A stretch of DNA of 64,000 nucleotides from an uncultured Candidatus Rokubacteria bacterium (GTDB taxonomy: Bacteria; Methylomirabilota; Methylomirabilia; Rokubacteriales; DASRDR01): assembly GCA_963708025.1 (NCBI GenBank), contig CAVPSB010000007.1, positions 1 through 64,000 of the forward strand, read 5' to 3'. The position numbers and the translations under genes were made by a program. Positions 1,960-63,367 of the stretch are shown piece by piece. The stretch's first letter is position 1; the number at the start of each line of letters is the position of its first letter. A model generated the notes under the pieces. The model was not told the origin of the DNA, ran no database searches, and worked only from the letters and a program-made list of their open reading frames with translations.

Positions 1960-2202
1960 TTCGGGACCTCCCGCCTACCCCCCCAGCCCCCCTCCCCCAC
2001 CCACCGGGGGGGAGGGGGAGCCGGAGAGGCCGACTGCGTCGCTCGTTCTTGCTCTCGGGACCTCCCGCCTACCCCCCCAGCCCCCCTCCCCCACCCACCG
2101 GGGGGGAGGGGGGAGCCGGAGAGGCCGACTGCTTCACTCGCTCCTGCTCTCCCGGCCCCGCTTCGGGGGGGGAGGGGGGGGTTGGAAGGACCGGTTGCTT
2201 CA
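1960..2202 (-). repeat. Family A C-rich/G-rich repeat, tandem copies (1960-2038, 2055-2137, partial 2165-2202)
   Basis: Near-identical cgggacctcccgcctacccccc...ccaccggggg..gagggggagccggagaggccgactgc units; reverse complement of the copies at 21.9, 27.8, 28.6, 57.0, 58.9 and 63.1 kb. Confidence 0.9.
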
Positions 2203-4211
2203 CCGGCTCTGGATTCGCCCGGGGAGGAGTCGTCGGCGCGGTCATCGACTTGATGGCTTCCAGCGCCAGATCCCGCACCGTCAGCTCGTTCCGCTGCCAG
2301 GGCCAGACCCGCCGGTTGGCCAGGGATTCGACGACCGAGCGCGCCTCCGGGCTCCCGATGGAGGCCAGGGCGCCGATGATCTCGCGCTTGATGAGGAGAT
2401 CGGTGGCGCTCTTCGTCGGCGTGGCCAGGAAGTCCCGGAGAGGGCCGACCGTGGTCGAGTCCAGCAGCCCGCTGAGGAGCTTGATGGCGGCCAGCCGCAC
2501 CTCGCTGTCGGGATCGGCCAGGTACTCGAGGAGCGGCTGGAGCGCCTGCTTGCCGCCGAGCAGGGCGAGGGCACGCGCGACCTCCCGCCGGACCTGCGGG
2601 TGCTCGTGACGCGCGACCTTGGCGATCGCCTCGAACGCGGTGGGGTCGCCGAGGCGCGCCAGCAGGGCGATCAGGCTCCTGGCGACGATCCAGGGGCTTT
2701 CGCCGAGGCGGGAGCGGATGGCCGGTGCGGCCGCCGGCCCGACGCCGGCGAGCACGTCTAGCATGCGCCCGCGCGGGGCGGCGTCCTGCTCCTCGGCCAG
2801 GATGGCGACGAATTCGTCCAGGGCCTCCCGGCTCACGAGGCGCAGGTACTCGGTCGCGCCGGCCACGTCGCTCGCGCTCTCGCTCCGGCGCAAGAGGTCA
2901 CCGAGCAGGGTGACCTGAGAGCGCCCGCCCAGCCTCCGGTGCAGGAGCTGGAGCCGGCGCTGGTGCTCGGCCTGCCACTCGGGTCGCAGCTCGCCGGGCT
3001 GGCCGAGCCACTGGAGGATGCGGAGCGCCAGGGAGAGCCGGTCCCGGCTCAGGGCCTCGGTAGCCGCCTCCTCGATGGCGTCGATGAGGAGAGTCGGGTA
3101 ACTTTCGGATTCCGTCTCGCCGATCAGGTGGAGCAGGATGTTGACGCTGTGGGGCAGGGTCTCATCCGGCGTGCACCCCCCCCGGGCGGCCCGCTGCAGC
3201 GCCAGCAGCCCGGGATCGTCGTCGGTGATGAGCCCCTCGATCGGGATGGCCGCCACCTCCTTCTCGGCGAGGGCGTCCTCCAGGCTCTCGACGACCCGGG
3301 CCTTCTTCCACTCCTCGGCCGGCAGGGCCTCGATCTCCGTCCGGAGGTTCTCCAGGCTGTTGGCCGGGAGGAGCCCCACCAGCTCGGCGAACTCGTCGCC
3401 CGACAGGCGCGCAGAGGAGGCTCAGGACGTTGAGGTCCGTCCGCACCGCCGGCAGGAGCCAGGCGGTGATGACGCTCGTCCGGAGCGGCTCGGGCAGCGT
3501 GATCAGGCACTCGTTCAGCGTCCGGTACCGGATCTCGCGGTCGGGCTCGGCTTCCGCCAGCGGAATCAGCATCTGGACAGCCCGGAACACGGCCTCGGCA
3601 CGATCGCCCGGCCGGGCCAGCTCGAGGAACCAGGCGGCGAGTCGCAGTCGGTCGTAGGTCATCTCGCGGAACTGCTCGGCCAGCCCAGCCAGGATCGTCG
3701 TCACCAGGCTGTCGATCATGTCGAGCATGGTGGTGGTCGGCCTGGGCCCGGCGGCGTCCCGTCCGGCGCCGTCGCCCCACAGGGGACCCCGGAGGGTGAG
3801 GTGGACGACGTTCCGCTGGACCAGGAGCTTGGAAAGGCCACCGGCCGCGTCCACGTCCTCGTGGCGGAGGTTCAGGCAGTCGAGGAAGTGCTGGAGCTCC
3901 CACGCCTCGACCGCCGGGTCGATGGCGATCTCGGTGACGCGCCGGGTCTCCATCTCGAAGCGGAAGGTCTCGAGGGCCTGGTCCCGGGTCGGGAGCTGAC
4001 CGCCGTCCCACTCGAAGCGCCCCGGCTCGATGCGCAGGAGGGGCGGCAGGCCTTCCCGCAGCGCGTGCTCGAGCGAGCGGTGGAGGCGCTGGACCCACTC
4101 GGTGGCCAGGGGGTTGCCGGCCGGGTAGAGCTTCACCGCCTTTTTCGCCCCCAGGAGCTCCTTCAGGAAGCCTTCCACGACCTGGGGGACCTGCGTCGTC
4201 GAGGTCGCCAT
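2069..4211 (-). CDS. HEAT-repeat protein, split by one extra base near 3413
   Basis: N-part MATSTTQVPQ...KLYPAGNP and C-part with HEAT repeats (HEHPQVRREVARALA, DPDSEVRLAAIKLL) join if one base at about 3413 is removed; the C-terminus runs into family A repeats. Confidence 0.8.
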
Positions 4212-4338
4212 CGCCACCTCTCGGGGGCGCCGCTCCACGGCGGGCCGGGCTCGAACAGTGCGCCATTGTAGCAGACGGGGGCGATCATCCCGAAGAAAGC
4301 CGCACCGCGTCATGGCGCCCGGCGCCGCCACGGTCGCC

Positions 4339-4367
4339 TTGACAGGACCGCGGTCGCGGGCTACAAC
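4339..4367 (+). promoter_or_regulatory. Sigma70-type promoter for murQ-anmK
   Basis: TTGACA (4339-4344), 17-bp spacer, TACAAC (4362-4367). Confidence 0.6.
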
Positions 4368-4375
4368 GATCGACG

Positions 4376-5323
4376 GTGCGCTCCGCGGCCCCGAAGCCTC
4401 GCCCCCGTCGCTCCCGTCGTCCTGTCCTCGACTACGCCGGGCTGCCGACCGAGCAGGTCAATCCGCGCACGCGACGGCTGGATCGGTTGAGTCCCCGGGC
4501 CCTGGTGGCCACGATCACGGCTGAGGACCGCCGGGCGGCGGCGAGCGTCGCGGCCGTGCGGGAGCCGCTGGCGCGGGCGGTCGAGATCGTGGCGACCGCG
4601 CTGCGAAACGGGGGGCGCCTCGTCTACGCCGGAGCGGGGACGAGCGGCCGGCTCGGGGTCCTGGACGCCGCCGAGTGTCCGCCGACCTTCGGGGTGCGGC
4701 CAGGGAGGGTCGTGGGGGTGATCGCCGGCGGGCGTCGCGCCCTGTGGCGGGCGGTGGAGGGCGCGGAGGACCGGGCCCGCGACGCCGAGGGCGCTCTCAC
4801 CCGACTGCGGCTGGGTCCAGCCGACGTCGTGTGCGCGATCTGCGCGAGCGGCGTGACGCCGTTCGCGCTGGGCGCCTTGCGGGCGGCTCGGCGGCGCGGC
4901 GCCCGGACGCTGGCCGTCACCTGCGCGCCGTCGCCCCGCCTGGCCGCCCTGGCCGAGGTCGTCATCGCGCCCCGGGTCGGGCCCGAGGTGCTCACCGGCT
5001 CCACCCGGATGAAGGCCGGGCTGGCGACCAAGATGATCCTCCATACGCTGACGACCGGGGCGATGGTCCGTCTCGGCAAGGTCTACGGGAACCTGATGGT
5101 GGACCTGCGCCCGACCAGCGCCAAGCTCCGGGCACGCGCCCAGCGGATCGTGTGCACGCTCACCGGGCTCTCGCCGGCCGAGGCGCGGGCCCTCCTCGGG
5201 CGCGCCGGCGGGAGGCCGACGGTCGCCGTGCTGATGCATCGACGCGGCGTGTCGGCGACCGCCGCGCGCCGCCGTCTCGCCGCCCATGGCGACGACCTCG
5301 GCGCCGCTCTGGGAGAGGGTTGA
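4376..5323 (+). CDS. murQ: N-acetylmuramic acid 6-phosphate etherase
   Basis: TEQVNP, GAGTSGRLGVLDAAECPPTFG, GPEVLTGSTRMKAG, GKVYGNLMVD. Confidence 0.95.
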   Translation: MRSAAPKPRPRRSRRPVLDYAGLPTEQVNPRTRRLDRLSPRALVATITAEDRRAAASVAAVREPLARAVEIVATALRNGGRLVYAGAGTSGRLGVLDAAECPPTFGVRPGRVVGVIAGGRRALWRAVEGAEDRARDAEGALTRLRLGPADVVCAICASGVTPFALGALRAARRRGARTLAVTCAPSPRLAALAEVVIAPRVGPEVLTGSTRMKAGLATKMILHTLTTGAMVRLGKVYGNLMVDLRPTSAKLRARAQRIVCTLTGLSPAEARALLGRAGGRPTVAVLMHRRGVSATAARRRLAAHGDDLGAALGEG

Positions 5324-6495: not shown

Positions 6496-6530
6496 GACCC
6501 GCCAGGGGGGGCGTCAAGCTCATTACAGAT

Positions 6531-6654
6531 GAGTCAAGTTCTCGGGGGCGGGGCCGAGGAGCGAGCAGCGCTAGGACCAGAGCGCCAACCGCAGGCCGAA
6601 CGCCGAGGTCCGAGGGAGGACGACGCGATGCGACGCTCATCGGCCCCGCCCTAG
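6531..6654 (-). repeat. Family B structured repeat (short internal variant)
   Basis: Reverse complement reads CTAG-GGCGGGGCCGATGAGCGTCGCA...GCTGCTCGCTCCTCGGCCCCGCCCCCGAGAACTTGACTC, matching both ends of the 60105-60343 copy. Confidence 0.85.
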
Positions 6655-7034
6655 AGACCGGGGAAGAGGGAGGGCTGGTCGGCGGAGGCTCGCCGCCGGG
6701 ATGGGCGGGCCCGGGGCGGGCGCGCCGGCGTCTTGGCGGTCCTGGTCTTGGCCGGTGAGGGCCGCAGCCGCCGGTGAGTGGCACCGGTCCATCCCTTCTG
6801 GCGCGCGATCTTGTCGCCCTGCTTGATGACGAGCAGATCGACCAGCCGGGCCAGCGGGTGCCGGAGCAGCGTCAGGTACCTGATCCAGTAGCGCGGCGAG
6901 TAGGCCAGCGTGCGCATCTCGTCGAGGGCGAGCGCCAGGGCGGCGTGGTCGCCCTTGCCGGCCGCGAGCCGGAGGCGCTCGAGGATCCGCGCCTGACTGG
7001 CAGTGCGCCGCCCGCCGCGGTCAGTGCCGCTCAT
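6651..7034 (-). CDS. Hypothetical basic protein
   Basis: 127-aa ORF with protein-like core (LDEMRTLAYSPRYWIRYL) ending QPSLFPGL. Confidence 0.6.
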   Translation of the reverse strand: MSGTDRGGRRTASQARILERLRLAAGKGDHAALALALDEMRTLAYSPRYWIRYLTLLRHPLARLVDLLVIKQGDKIARQKGWTGATHRRLRPSPAKTRTAKTPARPPRARPSRRRASADQPSLFPGL

Positions 7035-8875: not shown

Positions 8876-8880
8876 ACCGA

Positions 8881-21153: not shown

Positions 21154-21843
21154 ATGGAGGGAGACCGAGTCCACGCGCGAGCCGCGGCCGCCGGTCAGCT
21201 CGAGCAGGACGGCTTGTCGCCGGCACTGGTGGGGTGGCTGGCCGCCGAGCCGCGGGCCACCGGGAACGTCCTGGATGTCGGGACCGGCACCGGCCGGCTC
21301 GCCCTGGCCCTCGCTCCGCGGGCCCGGCGGGTCCTGGGCCTGGACACCGACGCCGGCGCCCTGGTCGAGGCGCGGCGGCGGGCGCGGCGAGCCGGCGTCG
21401 GCAACGTCCTGTTCGTGGTGGCCGACGCCGAGACGGCGGACTACCGGGCCCTCGGCCGGCCCGACGCCGTGGTGGCCCACCTGTGCATGTCGGACCCGAT
21501 CATCGAGCGCGCCGGTGCCGGCCTCCCGCGCGGCGGTGCCCTCGCCTTCGCGGCCTTCCACGTCGACCAGTGGCGCGAGACGGGCCACGTCTCGCGCTTC
21601 GCCTACGAGGAGGAGCGAGCGCGGGCCGTGCTTGCCGCCGCCGGCTTGCGCGTGGAGAAACTGGAGATCGAGCGCGAGGTCACGCGGTTCGAATCGGCCG
21701 CGGACGCGCTCCAGGGTGTCGGGCGCCTCCGGGAGAAGTGGCAGGGCGACGGACGCTGGGCCGGCTGGGAGCGCTTCGTCGCCGACGGGGGCCGAACGCT
21801 GACGGAGAGCCGGCTGGTCGTCCTGGCCCGGAAGACGGAGTGA
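21154..21843 (+). CDS. Class I SAM-dependent methyltransferase
   Basis: VLDVGTGTGRLA, VLGLD, VADAE. Confidence 0.85.
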   Translation: MEGDRVHARAAAAGQLEQDGLSPALVGWLAAEPRATGNVLDVGTGTGRLALALAPRARRVLGLDTDAGALVEARRRARRAGVGNVLFVVADAETADYRALGRPDAVVAHLCMSDPIIERAGAGLPRGGALAFAAFHVDQWRETGHVSRFAYEEERARAVLAAAGLRVEKLEIEREVTRFESAADALQGVGRLREKWQGDGRWAGWERFVADGGRTLTESRLVVLARKTE

Positions 21844-21845
21844 GA

Positions 21846-22129
21846 GCGTGGAGCAATCGGCGCGTCCGGCCCCCCCCGGTGGGTGGGGGAGGGGGGCCGG
21901 GGGGGTGGGGCGGGAGTCCCGAGCTGAGCGCGGGTGAAGGCATGCAGTCCTCCGGCTCCCCTCCCCCCGGCCAAAGGCCGAAGGCCGTCCAATCGGTAGG
22001 GGAGGGGGGCCGGGGGGGTGGGCGGGAGGTGCTGAGCTGAGCACGGGTGAAGGCATGCAGTCCTCCGGCTCCCCCCTCCCCCCGGTGGGTGGGGGAGGGG
22101 GGCCGGGGGGGTGGGCGGGAGGTCCCAAA
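21846..22129 (+). repeat. Family A repeat, three tandem units
   Basis: Units joined by GAGCTGAGC(G/A)CGGGTGAAGGCATGCAGTCCTCCGGCTCCCC; the last unit ends GGAGGTCCCAAA-GTG at the queG start. Confidence 0.92.
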
Positions 22130-23161
22130 GTGCTGGCCCAGCGGGTGAAGATCGCCGGGAGGCGGCTCGGCTTCGACCTGGTCGCGATCGGCCCCGCCGA
22201 TCCGCCCGAGCACGCCGCGGAGTTCGCCGCCTGGCTCGACGCCGGGTACGCCGGCACGATGGGCTATCTGGAGCGCGGGCGCGCCGGGCGGCTCGAGCCC
22301 GGCCAGGTGCTCCCGGGAGCCCGCTCGGTCATCGCGGTCGCCCTCAACTACTATCAGGGCGCCGACGCGGCGGGTCCCGCCCACGTCTCCCGCTACGCGT
22401 GGGGCGCCGACTACCATGCGGTGATGGAGCCCCGCCTCCGCGCGCTGCTCGACGACCTCGTCGCCGCCGCGCCCGGCACCCGGGGGCGGGTCTACGTGGA
22501 CACCGGTCCCGTCCTGGAGCGGGACCTGGCGGCGCGAGCCGGCCTGGGGTGGATCGGGAAGAACACGATGCTGCTCCATCCGGCGCTCGGCTCCTATTTC
22601 TTCATCGGGGTCGTGCTGACCACCGCCGAGCTGGCCGCGGACAGCGGGCTGCCCGATCGCTGCGGGAGCTGCACCCGCTGTCTGGAGGCCTGTCCCACCC
22701 AGGCCTTCGTCGCGCCCTATGTTCTCGACGCGCGGCGCTGCATCGCGTATCTCACGATCGAGCATCGAGGCCCGATCCCCGTCGAGCTGCGGGAGGGGAT
22801 CGAGGGGCTGGCCTTCGGGTGCGACGTGTGCCAGGACGTCTGTCCGTGGAACCGGCGGGCGCCGGTCACGGCCGAGGCGGCCTTCGCCGCCCGGGAGCTG
22901 CCGGCCCTGACGGAGCTGGTGGCGCTCAACGACGAGGACTACCGGCAGCGTCTGGGCGGCAGTCCGCTTCGCCGGGCCCGGCGCCGCGGGCTGGCCCGGA
23001 GCGCGGCGGTGGCGCTCGGGAACACCGGCGACGTGGCGGCCGTGGCGCCGCTCGAGGCCGCGCTGGACGATCCCGACGCCGAGGTGCGGGAGCACGCCGC
23101 CTGGGCGATCGAGCGCCTGACCGGCCGGAGGAGGAGCGACGATGATCGACCGGACACGTGA
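22130..23161 (+). CDS. queG: tRNA epoxyqueuosine(34) reductase
   Basis: SRYAWGADYH, VDTGPVLER, GWIGKN, CGSCTRCLEACPT, RCIAYLTIE, GCDVCQDVCPWN. Confidence 0.95.
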   Translation: MLAQRVKIAGRRLGFDLVAIGPADPPEHAAEFAAWLDAGYAGTMGYLERGRAGRLEPGQVLPGARSVIAVALNYYQGADAAGPAHVSRYAWGADYHAVMEPRLRALLDDLVAAAPGTRGRVYVDTGPVLERDLAARAGLGWIGKNTMLLHPALGSYFFIGVVLTTAELAADSGLPDRCGSCTRCLEACPTQAFVAPYVLDARRCIAYLTIEHRGPIPVELREGIEGLAFGCDVCQDVCPWNRRAPVTAEAAFAARELPALTELVALNDEDYRQRLGGSPLRRARRRGLARSAAVALGNTGDVAAVAPLEAALDDPDAEVREHAAWAIERLTGRRRSDDDRPDT

Positions 23162-27727: not shown

Positions 27728-27829
27728 CGTGTGAAGACGGTCTCCCCATGTCTGGCCGGGCGCTCCGAACCCCCCCCTCCCCCCGGTGGGTGGGGGAGGG
27801 GGGCCGGGGGGGTAGGCGGGAGGTCCCAA
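27728..27829 (+). repeat. Family A repeat
   Basis: CCCCCTCCCCCCGGTGGGTGGGGGAGGGGGGCCGGGGGGGTAGGCGGGAGGTCCCAA followed by TTG. Confidence 0.9.
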
Positions 27830-28489
27830 TTGGACACTGAAGCGTTCGTCAAGGATCTGGATGCGCGCAACCAGGAGCTGCTCCGCCGACTCGCGCCGGA
27901 GGCGGCGCTCGAGCCCGAGGTCGAGGGCGACCTGAGCGTGGTGAATCTCCTGAAGGTCGCGCTCAAGAACGAGATCGAGGCCACCGAATCCGCGGCCCGG
28001 TGGCTGGTCACGACGCCGGAGATCGACGTCAAGCTGGCCCTGGCCCGCCAGGTCGGCGACGAGGCCAAGCACTACCGGCTCATCGCCGACCGGCTCGCCG
28101 AGCTGGGATTCGACGCCCGCCAGTTCAACCCGCTGGCCAAGGGATACGGGCCCCTGTTCCAGTACCTGGACACGCTGGCGACGACGGTCGAGCGGGTGGC
28201 GGCCGGGCAGTTCACCCGCGAGGCGATCGCCATCGTGAAGAACCGCCAGTTCATCGAGTTCTGCGAGGCGGCCGGGGACGCGACGACCGCGCGGCTCTAC
28301 CGGGAGACCATCGAGCCCGACGAGCGGCACCACCACGACCTGGGCCGCCGGCTCCTCCTTCGCTATGCGACGACGGACGAGACCCAGGAGGCGGCCCGGC
28401 GCGCCTCCCGGCGAACCCTGGAGCTGGCCGAGGAGCTGCAAGGCATGGCGCTCAAGACCGCCGGGATCCACCATGCTCCAGGCTGCTGA
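27830..28489 (+). CDS. Ferritin-like di-iron protein
   Basis: NEIEA, GDEAKH, REA, DERHH ligand pattern; TTG start 5 nt after the repeat-borne GGAGGT. Confidence 0.8.
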   Translation: MDTEAFVKDLDARNQELLRRLAPEAALEPEVEGDLSVVNLLKVALKNEIEATESAARWLVTTPEIDVKLALARQVGDEAKHYRLIADRLAELGFDARQFNPLAKGYGPLFQYLDTLATTVERVAAGQFTREAIAIVKNRQFIEFCEAAGDATTARLYRETIEPDERHHHDLGRRLLLRYATTDETQEAARRASRRTLELAEELQGMALKTAGIHHAPGC

Positions 28490-28549
28490 GAACATCGGAG
28501 CCGGCAGGCGATGGCCGGGATGTCCCGGGCCGAGCCCTCGCGAGCAAAC

Positions 28550-28633
28550 CGAACTGAGAGCGTCGGGCTTCCGGCTCCCCCCTCCCCCCGGTGGGTGGGG
28601 GAGGGGGGTTGGGGGGTAGGCGGGAGGTTCCGA
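28550..28633 (+). repeat. Family A repeat
   Basis: TCCGGCTCCCCCCTCCCCCCGGTGGGTGGGGGAGGGGGGTTGGGGGGTAGGCGGGAGGTTCCGA. Confidence 0.9.
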
Positions 28634-28689
28634 TAGGAGGTTCGCGGGGGGGACCTCGACGATCCACTCCGAAGCTGATAGGTGATGAG

Positions 28690-29346
28690 ATGAAGTGGAC
28701 AGCGCGCTGGACGCCTCTCCTCCTCATCGTGCTTGCCCTGCTCGGGTTCGGAGCGTGCGGCGGCCGCAAGGCCGCGCCGCCCCTGTCGGCCGTCGTTGAC
28801 GCCCCGCTGCTGCGGGCCGGCTCGAGCTGGAGCTACCGGGTCACCGATACGACCTTCAAGGAGCCGCAGACGCTGACCCTGACCTTCCAGAAGGAGGACA
28901 TCTACAAGAACACCGGGGTCCTGGTCTTCGCCTCCGGCGCCGAGACCCTGTACTACGACCGTGACCTGAACTTCGTGGCCGTCATCCAGAACGGCCGGGT
29001 GGTCCGGGAGGCGTCGCCGTCCTATCGCGCCTTCGACTTCCCCTTCTACGTCGGCAAGGAGTGGCGGTCCGTCTTCACCTTCCAGGACTACGCCCGGACG
29101 CTCTCCTGGTCGCCGGTGGAGGTCTTCTGGAAGGCCAAGGAGTACGACGTCGTCAAGGTGCCGGCCGGGGATTTCCGCTCGTTCAAGCTAGTCAGTGATC
29201 CCAGCACGAACTGGGGGCTGGAAGAAGAGGTCTGGTACGCCCCGGAGGTCAGGCAGGTCGTGAAGTGGAAGCACGATCGTACATCCGCCCACTACCTCGG
29301 GAAGGGCAAGCAGACCGGCGAGCTCGTGCAGTACGCCCTGAAGTAG
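28690..29346 (+). CDS. Putative lipoprotein (beta-rich)
   Basis: Signal peptide with FGAC lipobox; VKVPAGDF and WYAPEV motifs. Confidence 0.75.
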   Translation: MKWTARWTPLLLIVLALLGFGACGGRKAAPPLSAVVDAPLLRAGSSWSYRVTDTTFKEPQTLTLTFQKEDIYKNTGVLVFASGAETLYYDRDLNFVAVIQNGRVVREASPSYRAFDFPFYVGKEWRSVFTFQDYARTLSWSPVEVFWKAKEYDVVKVPAGDFRSFKLVSDPSTNWGLEEEVWYAPEVRQVVKWKHDRTSAHYLGKGKQTGELVQYALK

Positions 29347-31952: not shown

Positions 31953-32471
31953 ATGATCCAGCCCGACGTGACGAGCCCGGCCCGGGACGAGGTGAAGCCC
32001 GTCAGCTCCGACATCTACCAGGAGGGGATCCTGGCCGGCCTCCTCGGCGCGGCGGTGATCGCCCTCTGGTTCCTGATCCTGGACACCGCGTGGGGGCGGC
32101 CCCTCTATACGCCTTCCGTCCTCGGCGCCGCCCTATTCCGCCGGGAACTCGCCGCCTCACCCGGCCCGGTGCCGATCTCGTTCGAGATGGTCGCGGCCTA
32201 CACCTGGATCCACGGCCTCCTCTTCTGCGTGATCGGCGGGCTCGCCTCGCGCCTGCTGACCCTGGCCGAGGAGCGGCCGAACGTGGGCTTCGGCATCGTG
32301 CTCCTGTTCGTGGTGTTCGAGTTCGGCTTCGTCGGGGTCGCGCTGGCCTTTGCCGAGCCGCTGCTCCACGCGCTGACCTGGCCGGCCGTGCTGATCGGGA
32401 ACCTGCTGGCGGCCACGGCGATGGCCGTCTATCTGTGGCGGCGGCACCCCCACCTCACCATCCAGCCCTAG
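31953..32471 (+). CDS. Hypothetical multi-pass membrane protein
   Basis: Four hydrophobic segments; AAAGGAG SD. Confidence 0.75.
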   Translation: MIQPDVTSPARDEVKPVSSDIYQEGILAGLLGAAVIALWFLILDTAWGRPLYTPSVLGAALFRRELAASPGPVPISFEMVAAYTWIHGLLFCVIGGLASRLLTLAEERPNVGFGIVLLFVVFEFGFVGVALAFAEPLLHALTWPAVLIGNLLAATAMAVYLWRRHPHLTIQP

Positions 32472-32680
32472 TGGGCAGGGCCGATGAGCGTCGCAATGTC
32501 GATCTCGGTCGTGGGACGTCGCTCGGCCGCAGGCCTCGCGTACGTCCGACAGGTCGTCGTTTGGACGGCCTTCGGCCTTTGGGTCGTCGCCGATCCTCGG
32601 TGTACTCGGAGTACGCCTGCGGTCGGCAGACTCCCGGCGTCCGAGCGCTGCTCGCTCCTCGGCCCTGCCCCCGAGAAGGT
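32468..32680 (+). repeat. Family B structured repeat
   Basis: CTAG-TGGGCAGGGCCGATGAGCG ... CGCTCCTCGGCCCTGCCCCCGAG; internal GTACTCGGAGTAC and GGCCTTCGGCC hairpins. Confidence 0.9.
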
Positions 32681-55577: not shown

Positions 55578-56963
55578 GTGGCCCAATGGTTCCGGAGGGA
55601 GTGGGCTCTGGCCGGTCGAGGCGCCCGGCGCCGTGAGGGCGCGCCGACCGGTGACGACGATGGCCGGCCCCGGTCGGCGGGTCTGGTCCTGGGGGCCGTG
55701 TTGACGTCCCCGGGCCGCCGGCGTCTTGGCCGTGCCCTCGCCGCGCTGGCCGTCCTCGGTGGGATCGGCTACGGCGTCTGGTGGTATCTGGGGACGCGCC
55801 ACCAGGTCTCGACCGAGGACGCGAGCATCGAGGGGTCCGTCGTCATCGTCAGCGCCCGGGTGGCGGGCCCGGTGGCGAAGATCCTCGTGCGCGACAACGA
55901 AGAGGTCCGCGCCAATCAGGTAGTCGTGGAGATCGACCCGCGGGACTACGAGATCCGGGTCCAGCAGGCGAAGGCCGCGCTGGCCATGGCGGTGGCGAGC
56001 GAGCGGGCGGCGCAGACCGACGTGCCGATGACGCGAGCGACGTCGGCCAACCGGATCGAGCAGATGGACGCGGCGCTCGAGGCGGCCCGGGTCGCGGTCG
56101 AGATGGGGCGCGCCCAGGTCGCCGAGGCGCGGGCCCGGCTCGAGGGCCGGCTGGCCGCCGTGGCCGCCGCCCGCGCCGACGCCGCGGTCGCGGAGACGAC
56201 CGTGGACAAGGCGCGCCGGGACCACGAGCGCCTGGCCCGGCTGGCCGCCCAGGGGCTGGTCTCCAAGCAAGACCACGAGACGGCGGAGATCGGCGAGCGG
56301 GCGGCCCGGGCCGCGCTGGACGCGACCCACCGCCGGCTCGCCCAGGCCGAGAGGGAGGCCGAGCAGGCGGCGGCCGAGGTGCGAACCCGGGAGCTGACCG
56401 CGGACCAGGCGCAGCGCCGGACCCGGGAGGCCGCGGCGCTCCTCAGCGAGGCCGAGTCACAGAAGGCGCAGGTGCCGATGAAGGAGGCCGGTGCGGGCCG
56501 CGCCGTCGCCGAGGTCCAGCAGGCCCAGGCCGACCTCGCCGCCGCCGAGCTGCAGCTCGCCAAGAGTCGGGTCCGGGCGCCGGTGGACGGCATCGTGTCC
56601 AAGAAGACGGTGGAGCCGGGCCAGCTCGTCCAGCCGGGCCAGCCGCTGCTGGCGATCGTTCCGCTCCACGGCGTATGGGTCGTCGCGAACTTCAAGGAGA
56701 CCCAGATGGGGCGCATCCGTCCCGGCCAGCGGGCCACGGTCGTGGTGGACACCTTCCCCGATCGGCTCCTGCACGGGACCGTGGACTCGATCAGCGCCGG
56801 CACCGGCTCCCGCTTCAGCCTCCTGCCGCCCGAGAACGCCACCGGCAACTGGGTCAAGGTCGTCCAGCGCGTGCCGGTGAAGATCCTGCTCGACGGCTAC
56901 AAGCCGAACCCGCACATCCTGCGTCCCGGCATGTCGGCGACCGTCACCATCGACGTGCGGTGA
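55578..56963 (+). CDS. emrA: EmrA/HlyD-family membrane fusion protein (start uncertain)
   Basis: STEDA, RAPVDG, ANFKETQ, FSLLPPENATGNWVKVVQRVPV. Confidence 0.9.
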   Translation: MAQWFRREWALAGRGARRREGAPTGDDDGRPRSAGLVLGAVLTSPGRRRLGRALAALAVLGGIGYGVWWYLGTRHQVSTEDASIEGSVVIVSARVAGPVAKILVRDNEEVRANQVVVEIDPRDYEIRVQQAKAALAMAVASERAAQTDVPMTRATSANRIEQMDAALEAARVAVEMGRAQVAEARARLEGRLAAVAAARADAAVAETTVDKARRDHERLARLAAQGLVSKQDHETAEIGERAARAALDATHRRLAQAEREAEQAAAEVRTRELTADQAQRRTREAAALLSEAESQKAQVPMKEAGAGRAVAEVQQAQADLAAAELQLAKSRVRAPVDGIVSKKTVEPGQLVQPGQPLLAIVPLHGVWVVANFKETQMGRIRPGQRATVVVDTFPDRLLHGTVDSISAGTGSRFSLLPPENATGNWVKVVQRVPVKILLDGYKPNPHILRPGMSATVTIDVR

Positions 56964-56974
56964 GGGCCTGAGGC

Positions 56975-57068
56975 TGAGAGCGCGTGAAGCAACCGGGTTC
57001 TCCGACTCCCCCCTCCCCCCAGTGGGTGGGGGAGGGGGGCTGGGGGGGAGGGCGGGAGGTCCCGAACT
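56975..57068 (+). repeat. Family A repeat
   Basis: CTCCCCCCTCCCCCAGTGGGTGGGGGAGGGGGGCTGGGGGGGAGGGCGGGAGGTCCCGAA. Confidence 0.88.
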
Positions 57069-57069
57069 A

Positions 57070-58645
57070 ACACCTTGGCTCTCGGGCGAAGCCGCCCGCC
57101 GGTGGGTGGTCACGGTGGCCGTCATGCTGGTGGCCACCATGCAGATCCTCGACACCACCGTCACCAACGTCGCGCTGCCCCAGATGCAGGGGAGCCTCTC
57201 GGCGTCGGTCGACGAGATCACCTGGGTCTTCACGTCGTTCCTGGCGGCCAACGCCGTCGTCCTCCCGGCCACCGGCTGGCTCTCGACCCTCCTCGGCCGG
57301 CGCCGGTTCTTCTTCGCCAGCACCGTCGTATTCATGGCCAGCTCGCTCCTGGCCGCAATCGCGCCGAGCCTGCCGGTCCTGGTGGGGGCGCGCGTCCTGC
57401 AAGGGATCGGAGGGGGACCGCTCCTGCCGCTGTCGCAGGCGATCCTGATGGAGATCTTCCCGGCGCGCCAGCGCGGGCAGGCGATGGCGATCTGGGGCCT
57501 GGGCGTGATGTTCGCCCCCATCGTCGGCCCGACGCTCGGGCGGCTGGATCACCGACAACGTGAGCTGGCGGTGGATCTTCTACCTCAACCTGCCGATCGG
57601 CGCGCTGGCCCTGATCCTCGCCTGGGCTTTCCTGGAGGAGCCGACCTACTCGCCGGCGCCCGTCACGCGGATCGACGGGCTGGGGCTCGCGTTGATGGTC
57701 CTCGGGGTGGGCGCCATCCAGATCGCGCTGGACCGCGGCAACCGGCTGGACTGGTTCGACTCGCCCGACATCTCGATGCTGGTCGTGGTGGGGGGCGTCG
57801 CGCTGGTCGCCTTCGTCGCCCGCGAGCTGACCACCGAGCATCCGATCGTGGACCTGCGGGTGCTCGCCGACCGGACGTTCGCCATCGGCGCGCTCCTCAT
57901 CGCCCTCATGGGGTTCGGGCTGTACTCGAGCATGGTGCTCCTGACCCTGTACGTCGAGCACCTGCTGGGCTACGACGCCCTGACGACGGGTTACGTGTTG
58001 GCCCCCGGCGGTCTGGGCTCGATGATCTCCCTCGCGGTGGCCGGCCGGTTGGTGAACCGGGTCGACCCCCGCTGGCTGGTGTCCGTCGGCGCCGCCATCA
58101 TCGCGTACTCGCTCCAGCTCATGTCGTCCTTGAGCCTCGGCGCCGACTTCGAGACCGTGCTCTGGTCGCGCTTCGTCCAGGGGCTCGGGATGGGGCTCGT
58201 CTTCGTCCCGCTCACGACGATGACCCTGGCCGCCGTGCCGGCGGTGGGGATGACCAACGCCACCGGGGTGTTCAACGTGGTCCGGAACCTGGGTGGCAGC
58301 GCGGGGATCGCGGTGCTGACCACGCTGCTCTCCCGCCAGACCCAGGCTCACCAGGCGACACTCGTCGGCCGGGTGACCGTCTGGGATCCCGCGACGACCG
58401 AGCGCCTCGCCGCCCTCGAGCGCGTTTACGCGGCCGGCGGCGCCGACGCCCACACCGCCCAGACCCAGGCTCTCCAGCACCTCTATCTCGAGGTACAGCG
58501 GCAGGCTTCGATGAAAGCGTTCCTCGGGAACTTCTGGCTCCTGACGCTCTGCTTCGCGGCGTTCGTCCCCCTGGTCTGGTGCATGTCCCGGCCGACGCAC
58601 CTCGCGACGAAGGACGAGGTGCTACAAGCGGTCGAAGCGGGCTGA
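57070..58645 (+). CDS. emrB: DHA2-family MFS exporter (frameshift near 57540; start uncertain)
   Basis: LDTTVTNVALP, PLSQAIL, GPTLG / WRWIFYLNLPIG, DRG..LDWF, RNLGGS. Confidence 0.88.
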
Positions 58646-58658
58646 CGGCCCCCTCCCG

Positions 58659-58871
58659 GTGCCCTTCCGGCTGCCGCAGCTCGGCCGCCCCCAGGACACC
58701 TGGCCCGGCGTCACCATCAGCGGCGCCGTGATCCTGGCCGCGGCCGTTTTGGCCGACGCCTTCGGCGACCCGCCGCGCGGGGGGCCCCGCCTGATGGTCG
58801 GCCTTGCCCTCGGCTTCGTCCTCCTCGTCCTCGGCTACCTGCTCCGTTACTGGGAGCGGCGCCGCCCCTGA
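58659..58871 (+). CDS. Small two-TM membrane protein
   Basis: 70-aa ORF with two hydrophobic helices filling the gap. Confidence 0.5.
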   Translation: MPFRLPQLGRPQDTWPGVTISGAVILAAAVLADAFGDPPRGGPRLMVGLALGFVLLVLGYLLRYWERRRP

Positions 58872-58889
58872 CCCTCTAACTAAAGAGAG

Positions 58890-58973
58890 TCCAAACCAAG
58901 CGGTCCCTCCGGCACCCCCCTCCCCCCCAGTGGGTGGGGGAGGGGGGTCGGGGGGTGGGAGGGAGGTCCCGAA
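58890..58973 (+). repeat. Family A repeat
   Basis: CCCCCCTCCCCCCCAGTGGGTGGGGGAGGGGGGTCGGGGGGTGGGAGGGAGGTCCCGAA followed by CAAT-ATG. Confidence 0.9.
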
Positions 58974-58977
58974 CAAT

Positions 58978-60108
58978 ATGCGCTACGACCTGATCCTCAA
59001 AGGCGGTCACCTCATCGACCCCGCCGCCGGCCTCGACGCGCGCCGCGACGTCGCCTTCTCGGCAGGGCGGGTGGCGGCGGTGGACGCCGACATCCCCCGG
59101 GAGGCCGGGCGGGAGGTCATCGAGCTGGCCGGCGCCTACGTCGCCCCGGGACTGATCGACCTCCACGCCCACGCCTTCATCGCGGGCCACGACCTCGGGG
59201 TCGAGACCGATCCCATCTGCCGGGCCACCGGCGTCACCACGCTGTGCGACGCCGGCAGCACGGGGGCGGCAAACTTCACCGGGCTCCGCGAGTACGTGAT
59301 GGCGCGCGCCGAGACCCGGGTCCTGGCGTTTCTCCACGTGTCGGCCATCGGCCTCACCCATCTCGGGATCGGCGAGCACTCCTTTCTCGAGTACGCCGAC
59401 CCGGACCTGGCGGCCGGCGTGGCCCGCGAGCACCGCGACGTGATCCTCGGCATCAAGGTGCGGGAGCAGGTCGAGGTCGTCGGGGGCCACGGCCTCGAGC
59501 CCCTCCGCCGAGGGATCCGAGCGGCGGAGGCGGCCGGCGTCCCGGTGATCGTCCACGTCAACAACCCGCCGACCGAGTATGGCGAGGTGCTCGCCCTCCT
59601 GCGTCCGGGCGACATCGTGAGCCACTTCTTCCACGGGCGCGGGTCCGGCATCCTCGACGCCCAGGGCCGCATCAAGCCGACCGTTCACGAGGCGCGGCGC
59701 CGGGGCGTCCTCTTCGACGTCGCCCACGGGCGGAATCACGTGAACTTCCCGGTCGTGCGACGGGCCTTCGAGCAGGCCTTCTACCCGGACAGCATCTCCT
59801 CGGACCTGACCCGGCCGGGGCGAGCGGGTGTCGTCAAGGATCTGCCGACCACGCTGTCGAAGTTCCTGAGCCTCGGCATGCCGCTCGCCGAGGTCGTACG
59901 CGCGGCCACGGCGACGCCGGCGCGGGCGATCGGGCGCAGCGGGGAACTGGGCACGTTGCAGGTCGGCGCGGTGGGGGACGCGGCGGTGTTCAAGGTGGAG
60001 GAGGGGCGCTTCCCGTACGAGGACGCCGACCGCAACACCATCGAGGGCGCCATGCGTTGGGCACCCCGGCTCACGGTCCGGGCCGGCCGGCTGTGGTGGA
60101 CCGCCTAG
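58978..60108 (+). CDS. Amidohydrolase, dihydroorotase-like/deacetylase family
   Basis: PGLIDLHAH, GVTTLCDAGS, GIKVR, LRPGDIVSH, DVAHG, ISSD. Confidence 0.88.
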   Translation: MRYDLILKGGHLIDPAAGLDARRDVAFSAGRVAAVDADIPREAGREVIELAGAYVAPGLIDLHAHAFIAGHDLGVETDPICRATGVTTLCDAGSTGAANFTGLREYVMARAETRVLAFLHVSAIGLTHLGIGEHSFLEYADPDLAAGVAREHRDVILGIKVREQVEVVGGHGLEPLRRGIRAAEAAGVPVIVHVNNPPTEYGEVLALLRPGDIVSHFFHGRGSGILDAQGRIKPTVHEARRRGVLFDVAHGRNHVNFPVVRRAFEQAFYPDSISSDLTRPGRAGVVKDLPTTLSKFLSLGMPLAEVVRAATATPARAIGRSGELGTLQVGAVGDAAVFKVEEGRFPYEDADRNTIEGAMRWAPRLTVRAGRLWWTA

Positions 60109-60343
60109 GGGGCGGGGCCGATGAGCGTCGCAACGTCCATCTCGGTCTGGACGCGCTCGGCCTGCATCGATCGGACGGCCTTCGGCCTGTGGGCGTCCGT
60201 CCCGACCTAGGGTCGTCCTCGGTCGTCGCCGATCCTCGGCGTACTCGGAGTACGCCTGCGGTCGGCGACTCCCTGCGTCCATTGGACGGCCTTCGGCCTG
60301 TGGGCGCTGCTCGCTCCTCGGCCCCGCCCCCGAGAACTTGACT
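60105..60343 (+). repeat. Family B structured repeat (longest copy)
   Basis: CTAG + 19-bp arm 60109-60127 ... arm 60312-60330 + CGAG; internal hairpins. Confidence 0.92.
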
Positions 60344-60352
60344 CGTCAAGGA

Positions 60353-61153
60353 CTAGCGAGGACGGCCGAAGAACAGGAGGATCGCGATGCCGAGCGCGAT
60401 CCGGTACACCACGAACACCGTCAGCGTGCGGCGCTGGAGGTAGCGGATCAGGAACCACACCGCCGCCAGGCCAGCCACGAACGAGGTCAGGAGACCCACG
60501 CCGAGGGCGGCCGCCTCGCCGCCGGGGAGGCCGTGACGCAGCAGGGTGACCGTCTTCAGCAGACCGGCGCCGGCGGTGAGGGGCAGCCCGAGCAGGAAGG
60601 CCAAGCGAGCCGCGGTAGGGCGATCGAGGCCGGCGAAGAGCCCGGCCGAGACGGTGATGCCCGAGCGCGAGGTGCCCGGCGCCAGCGCCAGGATCTGGGC
60701 GCAGCCGATCGCCAGACCCCGAAGAACGCCGACGTCGCGCAACTCGTCCACGTGGGCCCGAGCGGCCCGGCGGTCGGCCCACCAGAGGATGAGGCCTCCC
60801 CCGATGGTGGCGAGAGCGACCGTGCCCGCCGAGCGCAGGTAGGCCTCGATGGGGCGCTCCAGGAGGACGCCGGCGATCGCGGCGGGGATGGTCCCGACGG
60901 CCAGGGCGGCGACGAGCCTGCGGTCCCGCCGCGACCCGGTCAGCGTGCCGATGGCGAGTCCGCGGAGCTCCGGGGCGAAGTAGCAGAGGAGCGCCAGCGC
61001 GGTCCCGAGGTGCACGGCGGCGTCGAAGGCGAGTCCCTGATCCGGCCAGCCGAGGAGCGCCGGGACGAGGATCAGGTGGCCAGACGACGAGATCGGCAAG
61101 AACTCGGTGACGCCCTGGACGAATCCCAGGACCAGCGCGTGGAGGAGCGTCAC
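60353..61153 (-). CDS. uppP: Undecaprenyl-diphosphatase
   Basis: QGVTEFLPISSSGHL, HLGT, PGTSRSGIT, F..YRI. Confidence 0.95.
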   Translation of the reverse strand: MTLLHALVLGFVQGVTEFLPISSSGHLILVPALLGWPDQGLAFDAAVHLGTALALLCYFAPELRGLAIGTLTGSRRDRRLVAALAVGTIPAAIAGVLLERPIEAYLRSAGTVALATIGGGLILWWADRRAARAHVDELRDVGVLRGLAIGCAQILALAPGTSRSGITVSAGLFAGLDRPTAARLAFLLGLPLTAGAGLLKTVTLLRHGLPGGEAAALGVGLLTSFVAGLAAVWFLIRYLQRRTLTVFVVYRIALGIAILLFFGRPR

Positions 61154-61317
61154 GTGGAGGCTACGGGGGCGTCGCTAGCGGTTTCCCACCGAGGACCGAG
61201 CCGCCCTGGGACGACGGGGCGCGAACGTCGCCGACGCGACCACTAGAGTAGGACCGTTCGCGCAACCGGAAAGACGGCCCGGGGCGCGGGGCGTGCGGGG
61301 CCAAGTGACGAGCCTGG

Positions 61318-61494
61318 CTAGGGCGGAGGGAATCGCCGACCGCGGGCGTACTCCGAGTACGCCGAGGATCGGCGACGACCCCAGAGGTCGGGACGGACGC
61401 CCTCAGGCCGAAGGCCGTCCGATCGACGCAGGCCGAGCGCGCCCCGGCCGAGATGGAGGACGACGCCAGGCGAAGTCAATTGGCTCCGCACTAG
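61318..61494 (-). repeat. Family B structured repeat (core conserved, variant ends)
   Basis: Reverse complement matches 60138-60273; bounded by CTAG at both ends. Confidence 0.85.
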
Positions 61495-62306
61495 CCTACG
61501 ATGTCCTCGCCGCCATCGACGCCCAGCACGTTGCCGGTCATCCAGTGGGTGCTCGAGTGCGCGAAGGCGACGATGGCGCCGGCGACGTCCTGGGTAGTGG
61601 TCAGGCGGCCGAAGGGGTTGCGGGCCAGGGCGGCCGCCTTGATCCTCTCGGACCCCGGGATCTTCTGGAGGGCCGGCGTGTCGGTCACCCCGGCCCGGAC
61701 GGCGTTGACGGTGATGCCCCGGGGCGCTAGCTCCATCGCGAGCTGGCGAACGTGGGATTCCAGCGCGGCCTTGGCCCCCGACACCGGCCCGTAGTTCGGC
61801 AGGACCCGGGTGCCGCCGCCGCTCGTCATCGCGAAGATCCGCCCGCCGCCACCCATCAGGCCACGAACTACGACGTCCTGGGTCCAGTAGACCAGCGTGT
61901 GAGCCATGACGTCCAGCGTCATGTCCATCTGGTCCTTGGACACCGCCTCCTTGATGGGCTCGGCGATGAACGGCTTGAGCGTCCCGAAGGCGAGCGAGTG
62001 GAGCAGCACCCGAAGCCGGCCGCTCTCGCCACGGGCCTCCAGGTGCTTCTGCACCGCGTCGAGCACCTCGGTCCGGCGGTCCGGGTCGGCGGCGTTGACG
62101 TTGAAGAAGAGCGCCTCGCGCCCGTGGCGGCGGACCTCGACGGCGATGCGCTCGGCATTGGGCAGCGTGGCCTTCCGGTCGAGATGCACGCCGGCGATTG
62201 ACAGGCCGGCCTCCGCGAGGGCGAGCGTCGTGGCCTCACCGAAGCCGGAAGACGCGCCGAGGATCAACGCCCAGCCGGAAAGACGGATCGGGGGGTCGGT
62301 CGCCAT
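61491..62306 (-). CDS. SDR oxidoreductase, FabL-like enoyl-ACP reductase
   Basis: LGASSGFG, Y-x6-K (YGPVSGAK), GVTDTPAL, NPFGRLT. Confidence 0.82.
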   Translation of the reverse strand: MATDPPIRLSGWALILGASSGFGEATTLALAEAGLSIAGVHLDRKATLPNAERIAVEVRRHGREALFFNVNAADPDRRTEVLDAVQKHLEARGESGRLRVLLHSLAFGTLKPFIAEPIKEAVSKDQMDMTLDVMAHTLVYWTQDVVVRGLMGGGGRIFAMTSGGGTRVLPNYGPVSGAKAALESHVRQLAMELAPRGITVNAVRAGVTDTPALQKIPGSERIKAAALARNPFGRLTTTQDVAGAIVAFAHSSTHWMTGNVLGVDGGEDIVG

Positions 62307-62333
62307 GGTGGGCGTCATTCTAGCACGAGGGAT

Positions 62334-63011
62334 TCAGCCGAGACGGCGGCGAAGCCATCCGGCCTTGAGTCGCCAGAGCCGCTCCTCACGCCGGCGGAAC
62401 GGCGGCGAGTCGCGGTACGCTCGGACGGCGTCAGCCGCCAGGAGCCGCGCCCGCTCGCGGTCCTCGGTCGCCAGGTAGGCTCGGGCGAGCTTGTAGCGGC
62501 CTTCCACGCTGGAGGCGTGGAGGGCGATGAAGGCCTCGAGCGGTGAGATCGCGTCGGCCGGGGAGCCCCGGCGGAGTTGGTAGTCCGCGAGGGCGAGGTG
62601 AGGCTCGCCATAGCGGAGCTTCGGGTCCAGGACGAGCGCGCGCTCGACGAGAGGGCGTCCGCCGCCGTCGCCGACACCGAGCCGCGCCGCGCCCAGGTAG
62701 TACAGCGTCTCCGGCGTGTCGGGCATGCGCGTCACGGCGGCCTCCAGGTGGGGCAGCGCGGCCGCCGGGCGGCCGGCCTCGACGAGGAGCCGGCCGAGGT
62801 CGCTGCGGGCCGCCGCATCGTGAGGATTGGCCCGCACGGCCTGTTTCAGCTCGCGGATCGCGCCCCAGCGCTCGACCGCGCGCGGGATCCGGAAGAGACG
62901 CCCCGACAGGTAGCCGTAGCCCGCCCCGGAGAGGAGCAACATTGCCAGCAGGGCCAGCAGCGGCTGACCCGTGATCCAGGAGAGGAGGGCCCACAGGAAG
63001 AGCTTCTCCAC
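62334..63011 (-). CDS. Membrane-anchored TPR protein
   Basis: Two N-terminal TM segments followed by TPR-like repeats (NPHDAAARSDLGRLL, ETLYYLG, EGRYKLA). Confidence 0.8.
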   Translation of the reverse strand: MEKLFLWALLSWITGQPLLALLAMLLLSGAGYGYLSGRLFRIPRAVERWGAIRELKQAVRANPHDAAARSDLGRLLVEAGRPAAALPHLEAAVTRMPDTPETLYYLGAARLGVGDGGGRPLVERALVLDPKLRYGEPHLALADYQLRRGSPADAISPLEAFIALHASSVEGRYKLARAYLATEDRERARLLAADAVRAYRDSPPFRRREERLWRLKAGWLRRRLG

Positions 63012-63094
63012 GGCGCCACGATACCCAGCGCGGCGCCTTGCCCGCAAGCGCAGGGGGCCCCGGCGATCGCCGACGACCTCCCCGAGCATCTGAG

Positions 63095-63367
63095 GGGTGT
63101 GAAGGAATGGGGTTCTCCGGCTCCCCCCTCCCCCCGGTGGGTGGGGGAGGGGGGTTGGGGGGTGGGCGGGAGGTCCCGAACTGAGGGCGTGTGAAGGAAT
63201 GGTTCGTCCGGCCCCCCTCCCCCCGCCAAAGGCCGCAGGCCGTCCAACGGTGGGGGAGGGGGGCCAAAGGCCGAAGGCCGTCGAAGGATCGGGTGGGCGG
63301 GAGGTCTCGAACTGAAGGCTTCGGGCGGGCCGGCCCCTCTCCCGGGGGGGTGGGTCGGAGGTTCCGA
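63095..63367 (+). repeat. Family A repeat, three tandem units (progressively degenerate)
   Basis: GTGTGAAGGAATGG at the start of the first two units; GGAGGT(C/T)(C/T)CGA at each unit end; the middle unit carries GGCCG(A/C)AGGCC hairpins. Confidence 0.88.

Follow-up and report, generated by a model that had tools for sequence, protein, structure and literature searches.

Several bacterial repeats have been described that carry signals for translation. Mycobacterial interspersed repetitive units (MIRUs; 40-100 bp) are mobile repeats that insert at start codons, with translation kept through a small open reading frame (ORF) coupled at -4 nt, according to the relevant part of PMC12548453; the corresponding section of the review by Delihas (PMC3184786) reports direct repeats of four nucleotides for them and, in M. 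leprae, empty sites. In the same section, the Neisseria REP2 and Borrelia IR repeats are said to carry a promoter, a ribosome-binding site (RBS) and an ATG. Hairpin repeats (NTS/SRM) were linked to Ssn GIY-YIG nucleases by Chenal et al. 2025 (PMC11893778). This report concerns Family A, a repeat found in a 64,000-nt stretch of DNA (the window; positions 1 to 64,000 of contig CAVPSB010000007.1, here contig 7) from an uncultured Candidatus Rokubacteria bacterium. Family A is probably the most frequent form of a mobile element that is specific to this lineage, has no genes, is anchored on the stop codons of upstream genes and donates ribosome sites to the genes that follow, although several observations, gathered below, weigh on the other side.

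By analogy, Family A resembles MIRUs and Neisseria REP2, which provide precedents for a repeat that supplies translation signals; the idea itself is not new. Like the MIRUs of these descriptions, it is small, gene-less, sometimes tandem and found in operons in gene orientation, and the likeness extends to short direct repeats at filled sites, empty sites in relatives and insertion at stop/start junctions that keeps the downstream gene translated. Unlike MIRUs, with their small ORF coupled at -4 nt, Family A does not keep to unit lengths divisible by three, and near its 5' end TGA closes two frames. It also relies on a built-in Shine-Dalgarno (SD) sequence and has a copy number about ten times higher, features that set it apart from MIRUs as the cited sections describe them. 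As with the Neisseria REP2 and Borrelia IR repeats (PMC3184786, same section), Family A is intergenic, has internal stem-loops, lies immediately upstream of genes and carries an RBS. In contrast to REP2, for which the review gives an own promoter and ATG, the start codon used with Family A comes from the flank or from a duplicated TG, no promoter-like site was found in a scan of positions 56500-63600, and the primary anchor is the upstream stop codon. No description of Family A, or of any TGA-anchored, SD-bearing repeat, was found in the literature, in a search that had supplementary files outside its range.

The genome is an 8.17-Mb draft of 71% G+C in 49 contigs. A profile built from eight window copies and applied at a threshold of E<1e-3 on the genome scale detected 416 copies at 382 loci, amounting to 37,141 bases or 0.45% of the genome. 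Single copies were present at 355 loci and tandem arrays of two to six copies at the other 27; approximately 90% of Family A bases fell outside called genes, and the genes that flank the copies were unrelated to each other in function. A strict pattern that combined the hairpin with GGAGGT gave 175 matches when read forwards and none when read backwards, which is far beyond chance; 60 further genomes of the order yielded none. A few diverged core copies were detected by BLAST and profile searches in five other genera of the family, and these adjoined start codons at five of the eight loci examined. Across the whole window there were no Rfam 15 matches at the gathering score. In genome G002 (L084, approximately 1430-1600) a core copy was flanked on both sides by a duplicate, about 40 nt long, of the 3' end of the upstream gene.

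The full unit is approximately 90 nt, with modular variants of 52-180 nt, and is represented here by the copy at 56976-57066. Its 5' part opens with TGA and leads to a 12-bp hairpin in which a C-run broken by one T pairs with a G-run broken by one A around a 7-nt loop. More G-runs come next, and the unit closes with a highly constant 3' end, GGGAGGT plus CCCGAA(C), in which a near-perfect SD sequence is followed by seven or eight fixed bases. A second TGA lies 10 nt after the first in a different frame, and two frames are closed by TGA in this way. The two ends of the unit differ strongly, the 3' end being fixed and the 5' end variable: 353 of the 416 copies extended to the final one or two model positions, while on the 5' side they started between model positions 3 and 36. 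GGAGG was present in 342 of these 353 copies. Unit lengths formed three size classes near 92, 114 and 136 nt. An imperfect inverted match (12/14 bases) joins the last 16 nt to a CCTCC-bearing stretch that lies some 17-30 nt in from the 5' end and is thus non-terminal on that side; the match scored 10, compared with a maximum of 9 in 500 shuffles.

The 3'-terminal motif, with up to two substitutions, occurred 441 times in the genome, and 105 of these occurrences lay over 40 nt from any of the 416 copies. In the 25 of the 105 that were inspected, both termini recurred but enclosed other inner hairpins or none, over lengths of 52-180 nt; judged from these 25 sites, the family is modular. Variants with both Family A termini occur at contig 7 positions 64113-64258, just beyond the end of the window, and at about 100 other sites; in the longer ones, of about 150-180 nt, the termini surround a bigger nested hairpin of a different kind, and the smallest, of 52-58 nt, lack a hairpin altogether. 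Another repeat is also abundant, a short unit with a GGCC...GGCC hairpin; this second repeat is found in the window at 21964-21995, 63225-63290, 32555-32600 and 60165-60321; a 22-nt probe of it gave about 620 short-BLAST matches genome-wide. This unit is often nested in Family A loops, and in other genera it occupies the same operon junctions.

Genes were called from codon log-odds trained on 966 long frames of high GC3, and 300 nt on each side of every locus were scored. On the upstream side of the 382 loci, coding was on the element strand at 308, on the opposite strand at 40 and undetermined at 34; on the downstream side the corresponding figures were 270, 88 and 24. Within co-directional spacers, 242 copies were sense and 28 were antisense (p=1e-43). 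Convergent spacers contained 46 loci and divergent spacers 10 (p=1e-6), compared with a genome background of 808 convergent and 805 divergent spacers. A cassette selected for service to downstream starts would be expected mostly in divergent and rarely in convergent spacers; the opposite was seen, which indicates that the element is tied first to the upstream gene. Furthermore, where the upstream gene was co-oriented, the next gene was co-directional in 84% of determinable cases (242/288), compared with 85% (2153/2522) for TGA-ending genes without an element. The element tracks gene ends and is indifferent to the next gene. Its orientation, which a preliminary description of the window had ascribed to the downstream start, follows the upstream stop instead.

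These counts bear on a different explanation, a REP-like element with its main role, or the grounds for its tolerance, at transcript 3' ends, in which a GC hairpin protects or punctuates the upstream message and the GGAGG is incidental, being part of a terminal recognition sequence. REP elements are placed close behind stop codons. The stronger link with upstream gene ends (308 vs 40) than with downstream starts (270 vs 88), the 46 convergent vs 10 divergent loci, the strong 12-bp hairpin and a mosaic build like that of BIMEs are all in keeping with such a role, as is the retention of GGAGG at 72 of 75 loci that are unable to use it as an SD sequence. However, the hairpin is followed by G-runs and not by a U-tract, and no terminator-like call was made on the three element loci scanned. 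Most copies lie in co-directional strings of genes, where termination would be harmful, in-frame ATG codons were fivefold enriched directly after the element, and the native SD sequence was displaced at the junctions compared with relatives. The 3'-end reading can coexist with stop-codon-anchored insertion; as the explanation in its own right we consider it unlikely.

The 5' junction was analysed by extension of each upstream frame to its stop, which was compared with the start of the element. The frame ended exactly at the element's first TGA in 109 of 308 loci and at the second TGA in just 14; about 95 frames stopped ahead of the element, and the remainder were mostly copies with a diverged 5' part, which makes the projection imprecise. 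The upstream stop was TGA in 265 of the 308 loci, compared with 66% of 5,391 confident genes (p=2e-15). At the other end, TGA followed directly after the terminal C in 102 of 332 loci, compared with a control value of 1.1% per nearby position. Both TGAs were present in 63 of the 191 loci at which both ends were reliable, and the 3' TGA alone was present in 20. The base that precedes the 3' TGA was nearly always the C of the element, whatever preceded the 5' TGA, and the base that follows it varied, which indicates that the repeated unit is TGA, possibly TGAG.

The presence of TGA on both sides suggests a target-site duplication on stop codons, with TGA as the probable integration target and not a selected outcome. 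Alternatively, the element may carry TGA at both ends and survive best where its first TGA replaces the stop. That alternative would predict similar counts for the two stop-bearing frames, and 109 vs 14 were seen. With target-site duplication on TGA as the preferred reading, Family A would share with miniature inverted-repeat transposable elements a small size, the lack of genes, many copies and a putative target-site duplication (TGA on both sides at 63/191 loci; ATGA, element and TTGA at 74999 on contig 7). Lengths from TGA to TGA were distributed 21/19/14 by remainder modulo 3, and preservation of the coding frame by the element was rejected on these figures.

Stop/start overlaps of 4 nt (xTGA) are very common genome-wide, at 549 of 2143 TGA junctions, a number that may be over-called. 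A background that takes the first in-frame start over-calls such overlaps, and it was replaced by an SD-aware choice of start; approximately 38% of ordinary TGA junctions then had a start within -4 to +10. Element-bearing co-directional junctions with essentially no leftover spacer accounted for approximately 29% (60/210), a proportion that, set against the 38%, is consistent with tolerance of the element.

The tail of the 16S rRNA of this genome contains CCUCC, and the organism uses SD sites: at 3,010 ATG starts away from elements, native GGAGG peaked 5-7 nt before the start, and an SD core was present in 53% of these, compared with 19% in a control stretch. The GGAGG of the element sits 7 nt from the element end and gives a spacer of 5-13 nt. 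A complete 3' end was combined with a co-oriented downstream gene at 237 loci. The first in-frame start lay at -2 to +6 from the element end in 88 of them, and at these 88 loci the element GGAGG was the sole ribosome-binding motif in range. In-frame ATG codons at -2 to +6 numbered 72, compared with 6 and 3 in the other two frames, and their frequency per codon was 10.1%, compared with 2.0% at +23 to +40 (odds ratio 5.4, p=2e-15). Three forms of start recurred, namely the last A of the element plus TG(A), a TTG or ATG that replaces the terminal C and is followed by A, and C-TGA-TG; these are the remnants expected from TGA duplication at ATGA, GTGA and TGATG junctions. Ribosomes therefore have a usable site at these loci by sequence, and we infer that they actually use it.

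Comparison was then made with relatives, which belonged to other genera of the family. The preliminary description had pictured a spreading non-autonomous element and pointed to orthologous loci as the place to look for empty sites; Family A was absent from the five junctions compared, which in relatives were tight, many of them ATGA or GTGA overlaps, and had the native ribosome site beside the start. At the methyltransferase/queG junction synteny was found in 11 of 11 relatives, none of which had the element, while this genome has 286 nt of it there. Five of the relatives had GTGA/ATGA overlaps and four had spacers of 8-9 nt, and GGAG-like motifs lay within the last part of the upstream gene. 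In a scan of the genome collection with QueG, all relatives retrieved were at 64% identity or below and came from many phyla. Upstream of the ferritin-like gene, the stop overlaps AGGAG in relatives and an ATG follows after 10 nt of spacer, whereas here a TTG directly follows the element. The amidohydrolase gene of relatives is preceded by a spacer of 13-40 nt with its own GGAGG-like site and no element, whereas here solely the site of the element is in range. The TGA before the HD-domain gene overlaps the start in relatives or is 1 nt from it. At the ABC ATPase/permease junction (contig 7, 74999) relatives had ATGA (4) or GTGA (2), whereas here ATGA, the element and TTGA follow one another and the gene continues.

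At 163385 on contig 18, the single relative found had TGA, an SD sequence and ATG, as predicted from the sequence after the 3' TGA. Other candidate junctions gave less: on contig 43 the N-termini were variable signal peptides, the junction of a tctB-like gene differed in its only fair match, no match at 1e-30 was obtained for the contig 19 response regulator, and one candidate was dropped, its ATG opening just a 29-codon frame. Some of the junctions compared carried other hairpin repeats in other genera, which marks them as hot spots.

Soil populations provided a closer comparison at one locus. Contigs of two soil runs from different studies (X1 and X6) joined position 28487 directly to 28637, without the whole of the intervening 149 nt, and three letters at the junction were common to both sides. 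In one soil contig of 2,532 nt, 250 and 764 nt aligned on the two sides of the gap at approximately 96-97% identity. This locus is a presence/absence difference anchored on a stop codon. The copy upstream of the ferritin-like gene was bridged, and present, in one soil contig of a close strain, and soil contigs broke within the array upstream of queG; joints between different copies were treated as repeat cross-matches and ignored. In the only RNA runs, a fraction of 0.05 of the sampled words was present. Together with the 416 copies and the absence from the same junctions in other genera, the 149-nt stretch missing in two soil runs upheld the view of a spreading element.

The same comparisons bear on the proposal that Family A is not mobile, but is an old host-evolved intercistronic box inherited vertically, or an assembly artefact. 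Core-like copies in five other genera would suit vertical inheritance, as would the failure to find a mobilising gene in the families searched (see below). The element is nevertheless absent from the same junctions in relatives, the strict pattern separates this genome (175 matches) from 60 genomes of the order (none), tandem arrays occur at 27 of the 382 loci, the flanking genes are functionally unrelated, and copies are present in contigs of independent soil runs. We find this proposal hardly credible.

The scenario proposed here starts from the observed copy number and orientation, both junction regularities, the absence from the same junctions in relatives and the use of SD sites by the organism. 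The element would settle in the sense orientation immediately after the stop codon of a gene, most often on TGA itself, a mode of mobility that we infer. TGA would then lie on both sides, the upstream gene keeping its stop and the second TGA following the element. At tight old junctions, with an ATGA/GTGA overlap or a gap of a few bases, the native ribosome site would be left approximately 90 nt or more upstream, and the next gene would be initiated from the ribosome site of the element; the start codon would sometimes be re-created from the final base of the element and the duplicated TG. Insertions inside operons would thereby be survivable. We think that GGAGG belongs to the end of the element itself and that its SD activity lets copies survive at tight junctions. 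The earlier suggestion of a portable SD sequence tolerated inside operons would thus be right for about a quarter of loci (88/382) and for four of the seven window loci, and secondary to stop-codon-anchored insertion.

This would be a natural case of selfish DNA fitted to sit inside operons without breaking them, with a stop for the gene before and a ribosome site for the gene after. The start regions of dozens of unrelated housekeeping genes (including queG, the amidohydrolase, the ferritin-like gene and the ABC permease) would now be the same mobile sequence in an uncultured soil lineage. On the practical side, gene prediction may go wrong at starts and ends close to these elements, and the approximately 400 copies break short-read assemblies.

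Several results weigh against this explanation, or limit its reach. The first in-frame start was more than 6 nt away at 149 of the 237 co-oriented loci; an own SD core was present at 42 of the 100 distant-start loci tested, where the starts are first in-frame candidates only. GGAGG was kept at 86 of 88 usable loci, at 125 of 129 distant-start loci and at 72 of 75 loci with the next gene on the opposite strand. Since it is equally kept in every context (96-98%), local use as an SD sequence does not explain its conservation; the motif may instead be part of the recognition end of the element, or may exist as an arm of the imperfect inverted repeat with the CCTCC stretch (12/14). At the junctions, the 5' TGA alone was present in 53 of 191 loci and neither TGA in 55. 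Within the window, the site of the element was unused at three of the seven loci (the genes at 28690 and 63388, and the gene near 57100). The 149-nt gap in the soil contigs includes 62 unique bases and does not represent a clean excision of a single element. All relatives compared came from other genera and none from the same genus, and the gene and start calls came from a home-made codon-bias caller, not a validated gene finder, which makes the starts approximate. Finally, no mobilising enzyme was found among the Y1, RVT_1, small GIY-YIG, DDE_Tnp_1 and IS110 families searched.

The search for enzymes gave the following results. A RAYT or IS200-type TnpA had been envisaged as a partner of the repeat; there were no matches to the Y1 transposase/RAYT family (PF01797) in the 49-contig draft, while controls matched in 6 of 14 genomes. 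Family A is like REP, BIME and REPIN sequences in being high-copy and extragenic, with GC-rich hairpins and a mosaic build in which other repeats are nested in loops. It differs from the REP/REPIN-RAYT system in that no Y1/RAYT gene was found, inverted doublets were absent (none of the 382 clusters mixed strands) and the unit is asymmetric and approximately 90 nt long. An RVT_1 reverse transcriptase was not found in the genome. A partner enzyme was sought beside the repeats, following the approach set out by Chenal et al. (PMC11893778). Family A shares with the Ssn/SRM repeats of that study the presence of hundreds of hairpin repeats around genes; unlike in the Ssn/SRM case, no small stand-alone GIY-YIG nuclease was found in this genome, the sole PF01541 match being N-terminal in an open frame that spans at least 593 aa and looks like UvrC by its architecture. 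Five DDE_Tnp_1 and seven IS110 genes were present; none was flanked on both sides by copies, the nearest copy lying at 574 nt in one case and otherwise at 2.5 kb or more, and no parent insertion sequence with Family A ends was found among these two families, which were the transposase families covered by that search besides Y1. Insertion sequences are often missing from draft assemblies.

Given the failure to find a Y1 transposase, a reverse transcriptase or a small GIY-YIG nuclease, a more specific form of the proposal invokes an undescribed recombinase, or a host process linked to the termination of transcription or translation, through which integration would recognise sense-strand TGA stops. 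As a by-product, the initiation of about 90 genes would have been rewired onto a shared, G-quadruplex-prone leader that could answer a common signal. We regard this form as improbable; the sharp association with TGA nevertheless offers a tractable route to an unknown integration mechanism.

The preliminary description had also drawn attention to pairing of the C-run with the G-run and to five or more G-runs beside the SD sequence, and had suggested that a hairpin/G-quadruplex translational switch might be formed. The structural features were recovered: the 12-bp hairpin was present in the minimum-energy fold, and the 3' half contained six G-runs of at least three (57018-57062; G4Hunter-type score 1.98), which by sequence is a G-quadruplex motif, with four or more such runs and short loops. 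For one copy, folding gave an unremarkable z-score (-1.2). In such a switch the C-run, the G-runs and CCTCC would alternate to hide or expose the SD sequence, and about 90 genes would answer a shared signal. The G-runs speak for it, as does the complementarity of the CCTCC-bearing 5' stretch to the SD arm, given that forcing the two together was predicted to cost only approximately 4 kcal/mol (-60.3 vs -64.4).

The predicted openness of the SD sequence was, however, 0.44, compared with 0.34 for 150 native GGAGG sites folded alike, and its mean probability of pairing with the far 5' region was 0.22. Across 194 copies the outer arms were paired at 0.72, compared with 0.70 when slid by one base, and no covariation was register-specific (24 double changes, compared with 10-33 in slid controls). 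Nor was the 5' arm favoured at loci that use the SD sequence, being kept at 36 of 77 such loci and 118 of 229 others (p=0.51). The hairpin itself displayed no covariation among copies, with 225 T:A pairs, 12 T:T and no alternative pair, a lack of compensatory changes that also counts against the 3'-end reading. Folding predictions thus lent the switch no support, the SD sequence being predicted to be at least as open as native sites, and we judge it very unlikely to operate.

Within the window, about 13 copies at seven loci had been reported, and the profile search returned 11 firm copies (E<1e-3) and two weak partial copies at seven loci. All seven loci precede a co-oriented gene, which the G-rich end faces as had been described. 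The reported GGAGGT-to-start spacers were exact when read directly: 8 nt for the ATG at 1957-1955 (minus strand), 6 nt for the GTG at 22130, 5 nt for the TTG at 27830 and 10 nt for the ATG at 58978. These four start codons are credible because orthologues in other genera align from residue 1-3. The GGAGG of the element was at a working distance from the start codon at four of the seven window loci and at 88 of 237 loci genome-wide, in place of a native ribosome site that relatives have beside the start, and it was unused at the other three window loci.

The first locus (1960-2209, minus strand) comprises two full copies at 1960-2050 and 2055-2143 and a degenerate, weak partial copy at 2142-2209; its GGAGGT is at 1971-1966, upstream of the ATG of the HD-domain gene. 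On the same strand, at 2069-2245, a HEAT-repeat gene (start 3379) overruns the point at which its relatives stop and continues through the degenerate copy into the second copy, and it consequently has a repeat-encoded C-terminal tail of about 55 codons. The second locus (21841-22129, plus strand) contains three copies (21842-21922, 21928-22035 and 22040-22129), with the second repeat family nested in the loop of the middle copy. The methyltransferase stop TGA at 21841-21843 is the element's own 5' TGA, and GGAGGT at 22118-22123 precedes the queG GTG.

The third locus (27749-27830, plus strand) is a single copy with a diverged 5' part, and its GGAGGT at 27819-27824 precedes the TTG start of the ferritin-like gene. 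The fourth (28488-28636, plus strand) is the 149-nt segment missing from the soil contigs; it begins within the stop TGA of the ferritin-like gene (28487-28489) and consists of a 62-nt part that is unique in the genome and a copy at 28546-28634. The gene at 28690 starts 57 nt past this element and has its own purine-rich site. The sixth locus is a single copy at 58883-58973 (plus strand), with GGAGGT at 58962-58967 ahead of the amidohydrolase ATG.

The fifth locus (56976-57066, plus strand) is a single copy just past the stop TGA of a membrane-fusion gene (56961-56963, GTGA context). It occupies sequence that in relatives codes for the N-terminal leader of an EmrB-like major facilitator superfamily (MFS) gene; its GGAGG has no in-frame start at a working distance, and the N-terminal region of the MFS gene near 57100 is disturbed. 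The MFS gene itself (57100-58731) changes frame about 147 codons in and continues in another frame from approximately 57560, and relatives align solely to residues 1-147 of its first frame; this frame change reflects either an assembly indel or a pseudogene.

The seventh locus (63097-63368, plus strand) is an array in a divergent spacer, with copies at 63097-63180 and 63186-63311, the latter with the second repeat family nested in it, and a weak partial 3' end at 63343-63368. The array abuts a TACAAT (-10) box, which in relatives is conserved 20-25 nt before the ATG (63388 here); because the retained TACAAT lies directly beside the array, the element at this locus is probably upstream of the transcript. 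Relatives (L176, L177, L179) have a conserved promoter-like pair, TTGCTC-17-TACAAT, upstream of the cinA-like gene, and in the window (63370-63387) TACAAT alone is kept of this pair, beside the element array.

Elsewhere in the window, two arms that are 93% complementary (60136-60280 and 61321-61457) lie approximately 1.1 kb apart and bracket a minus-strand gene at 60353-61153. Related pieces are located at 32467-32627 and 6528-6654, and the pair of arms may represent another mobile unit.

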